Assembly: GCA_016213785.1 (NCBI GenBank) | Contig: JACQZQ010000002.1 | Coordinates: 1-46,942, forward strand | Direction: 5' to 3' | DNA length: 46,942 bases | Source of the DNA: Acidobacteriota bacterium | GTDB lineage: Bacteria > Acidobacteriota > Blastocatellia > Chloracidobacteriales > JADJPF01 | In this document: positions 6,056-7,123 of the stretch, in pieces | How positions within the stretch are numbered: position 1 is the stretch's first letter | How the letters are laid out: each line of letters opens with the position of its first letter | The notes under the pieces: model-generated | What the model saw: the letters and a program-made list of their open reading frames with translations, nothing else | Database searches by the model: none | What the model was told of the DNA's origin: nothing | Translations under genes and position numbers: made by a program

Positions 6056-7123
6056 TTAGTTAATTATTCTGATTAGTTTTCCATCATATTCTTGAACTTC
6101 TCCTATTATATTTGCTTCAATAGCATGGGATTTAATTTTATCTAATAGAATGGCTGCTTTTTCTTTAGCTACACTAATAAGCAAACCTCCAGCAGTTTGA
6201 GGATCAAATAAAACTGATTGCATAAGAGCAGATATATCAGAAGAAAACTCTACTGTATCCCCTACGTAAGTACGATTATAACGATCTCCTTTAGTCTTTA
6301 TATTTTCAGCAAGTAATTCAAAGACTTGTGGCATTATAGATATGTTGCTTGCATTAAGTTTTAAGGTTACTTTACTTCCTTTAGCCATTTCATAAGCATG
6401 TCCTAACAATCCAAAGCCTGTAATATCAGTTGCAGAATTTACCCCTACTTCTTGCATTGCTTGAGACGCTAAACGATTAGGTTCTGTCATTGCACTAACT
6501 GCTTTTTGCATTGCTTCTTCAGATGCTTTTCCAAACTTAATAGCAGAGCTAATAATTCCTGTCCCCAAAGACTTAGTTAAAATTAATCTGTCTCCTGCTT
6601 TAGCTCCAGAGTTAGTAACAACTTTTTGTGGATGGATTAGCCCTGTTATTGCATAGCCAAACTTAAGTTCTCTATCTTCAACTGTATGGCCTCCAACAAG
6701 AGTTACTCCTACACTAGCAAGCATTTCTGCTCCACCTCTTACCACTTCACCAAAAACGTCTAATTCAGCATCCCCTAAAGGAAGCCCAACAATAGCAAGT
6801 GCTGTTAAAGGTTCGCCTCCCATTGCCCAAACATCGCTTAAAGAATTTACTGCGGCGATTTTGCCAAAAAGATAAGGATCATCCACAACAGGAGTAAAAA
6901 AGTCTACTGTCTGGACTAAGGCTATCTCGTCAGTAAGTTTATAAACCCCTGCATCATCAGAAGTGTTAAAACCTACTAGTAAGTTAGGGTTTGGTACAAA
7001 TTTTGGTAAATGGCTCAGAACTTGAGCTAAATCGCTTGGAGCGACTTTAGATGCTCAACCACCACATTTAGCCATTTCTGTTAATCTTAAGTTTTTTTCT
7101 TTAGAGCTTAATTCTTTAGACAT
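6056..7123 (-). CDS. selD: selenide, water dikinase (selenophosphate synthetase SelD), Sec-containing via in-frame TGA at 7055..7057
   Basis: The track ORF (6056..6886) covers only the AIR-synthase-like body ('DDPYLFGKIAAVNSLSDVWAMGG...'). Extending upstream on the minus strand through one TGA gives ATG at 7123 (GGAG RBS) and the N-terminus '[40 protein letters not shown]...'. This is the canonical SelD N-terminus in which TGA occupies the catalytic Cys/Sec position. A hairpin follows the TGA. Confidence 0.88.
7027..7050 (-). promoter_or_regulatory. candidate bacterial SECIS-like hairpin, starting 4 nt after the selD TGA
   Basis: mRNA 5'-CUAAAGUCGC UCCAA GCGAUUUAG-3' forms a 9-bp stem with a 1-nt bulge and a 5-nt loop, directly 3' of the in-frame UGA. 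The loop lacks the GGUC-type apical motif of E. coli fdhF, so this is a positional and structural call only. Confidence 0.4.

Follow-up and report, generated by a model that had tools for sequence, protein, structure and literature searches.

A probable selenocysteine-type selD gene adjoining senB in an Acidobacteria contig, with a covarying SECIS-like hairpin downstream of its UGA codon

Selenophosphate synthetase, or selenide, water dikinase (SelD), occurs in a form that carries selenocysteine (Sec) at its catalytic position; this form is found, for instance, in Haemophilus influenzae and Aquifex aeolicus, the structures 2ZOD and 2YYE of the latter being of the Sec-to-Cys form. In Escherichia coli SelD, Cys17 and Lys20 are essential residues. 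Here we analyse a selD gene, apparently of the Sec type, on the minus strand (positions 6056..7123) of a complete contig of 46,942 bases, called the window below, which belongs to a metagenome-assembled genome (MAG) labelled 'Acidobacteria bacterium'. Among prokaryotes, 19% of the SelD genes are of the Sec type (PMC4561486); SelD ranks second in size among prokaryotic selenoprotein families (PMC13188914), and it is often misannotated according to BSepDB (PMC13326102). The cysteine or Sec and the lysine sit in the catalytic N-terminal loop of the protein (PMC13188914). The other system to be compared is senBC, the cassette for selenosugar synthesis in the pathways to selenoneine (sen) and ovoselenol (ovs) (bioRxiv 10.1101/2022.04.13.486033; PMC11030361), which may be chromosomally separate from senA/ovsA (PMC11030361).

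The window gene resembles the described Sec-type SelD/SPS2 genes in several respects: its product belongs to the same family (TIGR00476), the presumed Sec is at the same position of the N-terminal loop with a lysine three residues later, a stem-loop likewise follows the UGA within the coding region, and the gene has likewise been shortened by annotation pipelines. It differs in that it lies directly downstream of senB and not with selA/selB or selU/ybbB, that its host is a low-GC (about 35%), Acidobacteria/Blastocatellia-like MAG, and that its hairpin, which resembles a selenocysteine insertion sequence (SECIS), is weaker than that of its relatives. We hold with considerable confidence that senB and selD form a two-gene operon in which selD encodes a full-length, 355-residue Sec-type SelD with the UGA at 7057..7055, and that a hairpin here named H2 is the likeliest SelB-binding element. 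Translation would start at ATG 7123 behind a GGAG motif, Sec would be inserted at the UGA without termination, and H2 (7010..7030), whose apical loop GUU lies about 32 nt after the UGA, would be the element that binds SelB. H2 is maintained through compensatory change in Sec-type SelD genes and decays where the codon turned to Cys. The selenophosphate made by SelD would then serve Sec synthesis, the Sec of SelD itself included, and in all likelihood the neighbouring SenB as well, which would convert it to a selenosugar such as seleno-N-acetylglucosamine (SeGlcNAc). Sec-type SelD itself is a well-known selenoprotein, and the novelty is modest; it concerns the linkage to senB and the more precise assignment of the SECIS.

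Read from ATG 7123 to the TAA stop at 6058..6056, the frame has 355 codons, counting the presumed Sec23, and a single internal stop, the TGA at 7055..7057 (codon 23). The read-through translation proposed in the preliminary description was reproduced exactly, and the frame beyond the TGA is intact. That description had also expected gene finders to shorten selD, and this holds for the mechanical ORF list as well as for the public records: the list has just 6056..6886 (276 aa, GTG start at 6886), the Logan gene call (P0005) is the same 276-aa form, and the NCBI protein MBI4850237.1 (P0001) is a 320-aa SelD that begins MSHLPKF at a CTG (7016..7018, minus strand) inside the 3' arm of H2. The first 22 codons (7058..7123, minus strand), recognised by their conservation in relatives and by the coverage of the SelD profile, are absent from all these annotations. 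A GGAG ribosome-binding site (7130..7133, minus strand; sequence ttGGAGaaatatATG) stands 6 nt upstream of ATG 7123, and GGAG also precedes the selD start in the related loci L001 and L004; inspection of the sequence upstream of CTG 7018 and GTG 6886 revealed no ribosome-binding motif at either annotated start.

Scored with U replaced by C, the read-through protein matches the TIGR00476 selD profile with 381.9 bits (cutoff 125), residues 13-322 falling on profile positions 1-310, and NF002098 with 338.9 bits (cutoff 299). The match starts at residue 13, i.e. upstream of the TGA and at the first position of the profile, so the N-terminal extension is homologous to SelD. A phmmer alignment with the structure of Escherichia coli SelD (3U0O, E=6e-64, residues 9-344 aligned) places U23 on the catalytic Cys17 and K26 on Lys20, and residue 23 is also aligned with the Cys of the A. 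aeolicus protein. Both the AIRS and the AIRS_C domain (PF00586, PF02769) are annotated in P0001 and in every homolog, the motif 'RLTEM..C.G' is kept in the N-terminus across relatives, and the 22 N-terminal codons show both synonymous and non-synonymous differences among L001-L004.

A scan of one genome per species yielded 80 related loci, which together with the window and one Logan contig make 82. The codon homologous to the window TGA is TGA in 76 of them and TGC or TGT in the remaining 6, and many Cys-type SelD proteins carry 'SCAGCAAK'; this alternation of TGA and Cys at one codon is the Sec/Cys signature of selenoprotein genes. That the TGA stands at the catalytic position had already been suggested from the window alone. 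Most of the loci with TGA carry the label Blastocatellia or Pyrinomonadaceae (Acidobacteriota), the other labels being Armatimonadota, Calditrichaceae, Clostridia and Bacilli (both Firmicutes) and one 'delta proteobacterium', and further TGA-type selD genes adjoin senB in metagenomes.

The preliminary description had pointed to a bulged 9-bp stem-loop directly after the TGA. This hairpin, H1 (7027..7050, minus strand), does appear in computed folding, with -6.5 kcal/mol in the bulged register and -7.8 kcal/mol in an alternative 8-bp register (7029..7047, loop CCA). The comparative data, however, favour a second hairpin inside the stretch (7000-7060) that had been put forward for scanning. In alignment A1, which comprises 75 distinct sequences without gaps and whose columns are numbered from the U of UGA, columns 28-36 pair with columns 40-48 around a GUN loop and encode A-Q-V-L-S; this is H2 (window 7010..7030, core 7013..7027, minus strand), in which 90% of the cells are paired. 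Compensatory change is evident at pair 30:46 (UA 42, GC 19, CG 4, AU 1), at pair 33:43 (UA 58, CG 7, GC 7, AU 2) and at pair 36:40 (AU 54, GC 18). H2 is the sole helix predicted by RNAalifold, and the H1 core and H2 together have 84.6% of their cells paired as against 21-46% when the partners are slid.

The encoded peptide was controlled for by keeping the protein fixed and shuffling synonymous codons within each sequence. Under this control H2 retains 8.12 of 9 pairs against 5.42 in the shuffles, with 58 of the 75 sequences at or below 5%, and it is degraded to 4-6 pairs in five of the six Cys-type genes. The H1 core has 3.72 of 5 pairs family-wide where the peptide alone predicts 2.83, none of the 75 sequences is significant, and the core is just as intact in Cys-type genes (4-5 of 5 pairs). 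The H1 loop (CCA or UCCAA) contains no G and starts 14-15 nt after the UGA. The bacterial SECIS (bSECIS) consensus of the bSECISearch model asks for a loop of 3-9 nt, a stem of 4-16 bp, a G in the first two loop positions, a spacing of 16-37 nt and a minimum free energy (MFE) of at most -7.5 kcal/mol (PMC13188914). In its G-first loop and in its UGA-to-loop spacing of 32-33 nt H2 agrees with this consensus; like the E. coli fdhF SECIS it is a coding-region stem-loop with a small loop beginning G-U, although the spacing comes close to the permitted maximum and H1 occupies the spacer. The family median of H2 is -8.7 kcal/mol and its form in L001-L003, the closest relatives of the window, has 6 bp, a GUU loop and -7.7 kcal/mol; both agree with the consensus in every respect. 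We assign H2 as the conserved SECIS with moderate confidence, on the strength of these alignments, and H1 is probably not a conserved SelB-binding element.

The residue that follows AQVL in these proteins is Ser, Arg, Cys or Gly, a choice by which pairing between its codon and that of Ala is preserved (GCU/AGC, GCG/CGU, GCA/UGU, GCC/GGC); the 75-sequence comparison thus offers a clean case in which a SECIS within the coding region has an influence on the protein sequence. One Cys-type gene stands apart, L027 (TGT), which is the lone Cys form with a perfect 9-bp H2. Fossil SECIS elements after Sec-to-Cys conversion have been described for SelD and FdhA (PMC1794560), and the hairpin of L027 is consistent with such a remnant of a recent conversion.

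The window's own copy of H2 is weak, and a number of points weigh against this assignment. With 5 bp (GCUCA-AGUUC-UGAGC) it is among the 3 weakest of 76; the window alone of the compared sequences has an A.C mismatch at the loop-closing pair, and the mismatch is confirmed by the Logan assembly of run SRR12113407, which is 100% identical over 14.6 kb. Only 6 of the 9 pairs are formed, a count that 19% of the synonymous shuffles reach, and the energy of -5.8 kcal/mol lies above the -7.5 kcal/mol threshold, although loop, stem, G and spacing all agree with the consensus. Searches against Rfam, with the window at gathering thresholds and 6950..7130 at permissive E-values, returned no SECIS or other meaningful family. 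H1, or an extended form of it with the UGA in the lower stem, might then be the functional SECIS of this clade and H2 a decaying ancestral element. In favour of this reading, H1 is the stabler of the two in the window: its -7.8 kcal/mol compares with -2.8 ± 2.0 in synonymous recodings, 97.6% of which are less stable (2.4% equally stable), as against -5.8 versus -1.7 ± 1.9 kcal/mol (4.6% of shuffles) for H2. In the window's clade both hairpins are more stable than synonymous recodings, which in the case of H1 leaves room for a role. The UGA of E. coli fdhF is located at the base of its SECIS hairpin, and an alternative fold in which UGAGC (columns 1-5) pairs with GCUCA (31-35) and encloses H1 resembles this layout; at -12.5 kcal/mol it comes close to the -13.6 kcal/mol of H1 and H2 together.

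We nevertheless regard a SECIS function of H1 as unlikely. Its loop lacks a G at either of the first two positions and starts outside the 16-37 nt range, its core survives equally well in genes that have no UGA to recode and does not exceed the peptide-constrained null family-wide, and the closest relatives have kept a 6-bp H2 with its GUU loop. H1 would at most be an accessory, a real local structure of the window's clade that follows in large part from the conservation of the peptide, and H2 remains the preferred SelB-binding element. The pentamer UGAGC, as a separate matter, occurs both at the Sec codon (7053..7057) and in the 3' arm of H2 (7013..7017), with GCUCA at 7023..7027 as the partner; the same full alternative pairing is possible in 59 of the 76 Sec-type loci, and it could be a codon coincidence or a conformational switch.

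Two further explanations concern the TGA itself. Were it a true stop, selD would be a pseudogene, or would be expressed only in an N-terminally shortened form from an internal start. We consider this very improbable, although both public gene calls begin downstream of the TGA and the Sec machinery was not found nearby, which also counts against our own interpretation. Neither selA, selB nor tRNA-Sec was detected in the 47-kb contig (ARAGORN, Rfam, Pfam, NCBIfam; essentially all ORFs of at least 90 aa), where ARAGORN found no tRNA at all and selU was likewise absent from the scanned ORFs (Pfam, NCBIfam), and none of the three is present within ±10 kb of selD in any fetched Acidobacteria locus. 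A search seeded with the SelA of the Calditrichaceae locus L068 had no Acidobacteria-labelled match among the best 120, which are of KSB1, Caldithrix and Zixibacteria type. It should also be kept in mind that related Pyrinomonadaceae make up a large part of the 75 sequences compared, and the counts given above therefore overstate the independent events. A stop, however, would have to coincide with the catalytic codon in each of 76 loci that span several phyla; the 22 codons before it are conserved, are preceded by a ribosome-binding site that the internal starts lack, and take part in the SelD profile match; the shortened protein would be without the residues aligned to Cys17 and Lys20; and the remaining ORF is intact. 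The machinery does stand beside TGA-type selD genes of more distant relatives: in L068 the operon selA-selB-selD-tRNA-Sec is complete, selA, selB and tRNA-Sec adjoin selD in L077 and L081, L080 has selA and selB, and all four selD genes carry the same H2. Sec-utilising Acidobacteriota are known (PMC12013277), and we expect selA, selB and selC to be encoded elsewhere in this genome.

Slightly less probable still is the insertion of a standard amino acid at the TGA, by a reassigned code (Trp or Gly) or by near-cognate read-through. One public gene caller did render the homologous TGA of L001 as Trp (P0002), and TGA is rare as a stop in the window, where it terminates 2 of the 30 long ORFs. A reassigned code would scatter in-frame TGAs, yet no other long ORF in the window is interrupted by a TGA with long coding flanks; four other candidate interruptions proved to be either normal stops followed by a short tail or spurious frames of little length. 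Since TGA does end two long ORFs and interrupts no other, its use as a sense codon throughout the code is unlikely. In the homologs, moreover, the codon alternates solely with Cys, and a conserved covarying hairpin follows it only in the TGA forms, which again favours Sec.

The gene upstream of selD, senB (7160..8128, minus strand), which the preliminary description had overlooked, encodes a selenosugar synthase (Se-glycosyltransferase) of 322 aa and stops 36 nt before the selD ATG. It scores 328.1 bits against TIGR04348 (curated cutoff 300; profile positions 1-309 of 310) and matches the structures 8k5u, 8jjq and 8fbx at E about 1e-42. The residues N20, T23, K158 and E231 (EGGAHV motif) of SenB have been defined experimentally (PMC10891094); the window residues N17, T20, K158 and E231 (EGGSNV) align with them in 8k5u, and alignment A2 shows no variation at any of the four. 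The adjacency of senB to a TGA-type selD is kept in six relatives (L001-L004, L082 and L163; SelD identity 77-89%). In a senB-seeded metagenome scan, for which flanks of at most 4 kb were fetched on each side, selD was present in the flanks of only 8 of 80 loci, and in all 7 senB-linked metagenome loci with a readable N-terminus, from at least 3 distinct sequence groups, its codon is TGA.

The comparison with the senBC cassette is informative. As there, a SenB with all characterised key residues is encoded on the same strand as an adjoining SelD homolog; the difference is that the equivalent of SenC is here a UGA/Sec-type SelD. No mention of a Sec-containing SenC was found in the literature searched; the SenC of Variovorax paradoxus gave a high yield when expressed in E. 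coli, and for this reason we take it to be of the Cys type. Since the operon partner is senB, the likely use of this SelD has to be reinterpreted. In contrast to cassettes that accompany senA or ovsA, none of the scanned window ORFs of at least 90 aa is a senA-, ovsA- or egtB-type gene (the sole DinB_2 protein has 159 aa and is about 15 kb away), nor does one stand beside senB in close relatives; a senA may nevertheless exist at a distant place in the genome, chromosomally separated cases having been reported (PMC11030361). In contrast to the published sen clusters, senB and selD do not overlap, and the published mining based on ORF overlap would miss this pair because of the 36-nt gap. Co-transcription of the two genes is presumed from their arrangement. 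A promoter and terminator scan of 5600..8500 gave 10 promoter-like matches against 9.5 in shuffles and no terminator. ORF clustering across 86 senB loci brought out no conserved third gene, and an apparent second cluster near senB was an alternate-frame artefact of high-GC senB.

Annotation is the first matter on which these results bear. MBI4850237.1 is without the catalytic loop; the proper entry would be a selenoprotein of 355 residues that carries a transl_except at codon 23. The deposited selD start is 141 nt from the senB stop and the true one 36 nt, and mining that relies on annotated selD ORFs would under-count or mis-place sen-type clusters. A broader point is that the selenophosphate synthetase of a senBC cassette can, it appears, itself be a selenoprotein, which ties small-molecule selenium metabolism to Sec decoding.

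In-frame TGAs are also found in related senB genes, although the window's own senB has none of those described here. Thirteen of the 87 full-length senB matches in the fetched loci have exactly one in-frame stop, which is always TGA. The clearest site is position 224 (window numbering), 7 residues before EGG, where five distinct sequences (L107, L113, L144, L152 and L160) have TGA and 11 have Cys (the Cys homologs include L020, L024, L100, L101, L105, L111, L114, L116, L126, L148 and L149); the context is '..QL*VHSSRLEGG' in the former and '..DLCVHSSRLEGG' in the latter. The TGA forms share a hairpin, CCCGCCU-GGA-AGGCGGG, whose G-first loop lies about 18 nt after the UGA and which agrees with the bSECIS consensus throughout, and this hairpin is missing from Cys forms that encode the same peptide; the median MFE of the region is -15.9 kcal/mol in TGA forms, -10.8 in Cys forms and -10.5 in the others. 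The literature searched contained no mention of a Sec-containing SenB. We propose the proteins with TGA at 224 as candidate Sec-containing SenBs, judging from the codon and hairpin patterns, and these loci mark SenB as a possible new selenoprotein family.

The remaining senB sites are of a different kind. The divergent L124 and L128, the contigs of which each also carry a TGA-type selD, have TGA at about residue 215, with compensatory change in the hairpins that follow (GAGCCA..UGGCUC and GAGUCA..UGACUC, respectively); L121 and L136 have TGA at codon 5, and L146 at about residue 130. At these sites the residues of the homologs are not Cys but Arg, Leu, Ile or variable. Within the window's clade TGA occurs at codon 67 of L004 (L004:9188-9190) and codon 66 of L163, where the window has Leu67 and Glu66. 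Their DNA is about 79% identical and senB is otherwise intact in both, but no convincing G-loop hairpin follows either TGA, and either independent nonsense mutations or recoding may account for them.

It is tempting to speculate that senB and the UGA-containing selD form a self-contained selenosugar module that is gated by selenium at the level of translation, that a UGA/SECIS pattern extends to the wider pathway including SenB, and that Sec serves partly as a selenium sensor, but we regard this broader proposal as doubtful. Were it true, SelD, selenophosphate and the SenB product would be formed only when charged Sec-tRNA(Sec) is available, and the SenB TGAs seen elsewhere, mostly at non-catalytic positions and with SECIS-like hairpins, would represent an undescribed pattern. 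Sec would then be more than a better catalytic residue, and Sec decoding in Acidobacteria might persist mainly for SelD.

Several neighbouring genes may be mentioned. In L003:1371-4184, L004:6180-8930 and L163:5525-8287 a ChrA-family (chromate/oxyanion) transporter and an aldehyde dehydrogenase of the methylmalonate-semialdehyde dehydrogenase type precede senB on the same strand, and the window has neither at that position; putative selenate transporters have been reported near many sen clusters. In L003 and L004 the gene of 484 aa that precedes senB had been considered as a senA, but it is this methylmalonate-semialdehyde dehydrogenase. On the other side, a small NirD-like Rieske [2Fe-2S] protein of 124 aa (5647..6021, plus strand; Pfam Rieske, 68.6 bits) is encoded convergently with selD. 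The same convergent gene follows selD in L003:6350-6688, L004:11088-11426 and L163:10956-11288, the other neighbours being different, and a functional link to selD, e.g. electron supply for selenium reduction, is conceivable.

Divergent from senB is a cluster (8428..20308, plus strand) that encodes a GltD/YgfK-like iron-sulphur (FeS) flavoprotein (639 aa), a Rieske protein, a cytochrome b, a 549-aa multihaem and a mono-haem cytochrome c, a divergent alpha subunit of the type II dimethyl sulfoxide (DMSO)-reductase family (1156 aa; TIGR03479, 280 bits, far short of its cutoff of 985), the beta subunit and a gamma subunit of the EB_dh type, and a chaperone. A part of this DMSO-reductase/Rieske-cytochrome b cluster in selenium metabolism, such as selenate reduction, was considered and rejected, the cluster not being conserved by senB-selD in L003, L004 and L163. 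Finally, a family of ORFs of about 387 aa is found near senB in 9 metagenome loci (within L084-L093; representative L092:409-1653, RGIVEGFFGPPWSMSHRAALFEFGAKRGMNTYLYAPKDDPYHRERW). We take it to resemble GH84-type N-acetylglucosaminidases, an identity that, if true, would be of interest beside a SeGlcNAc synthase.

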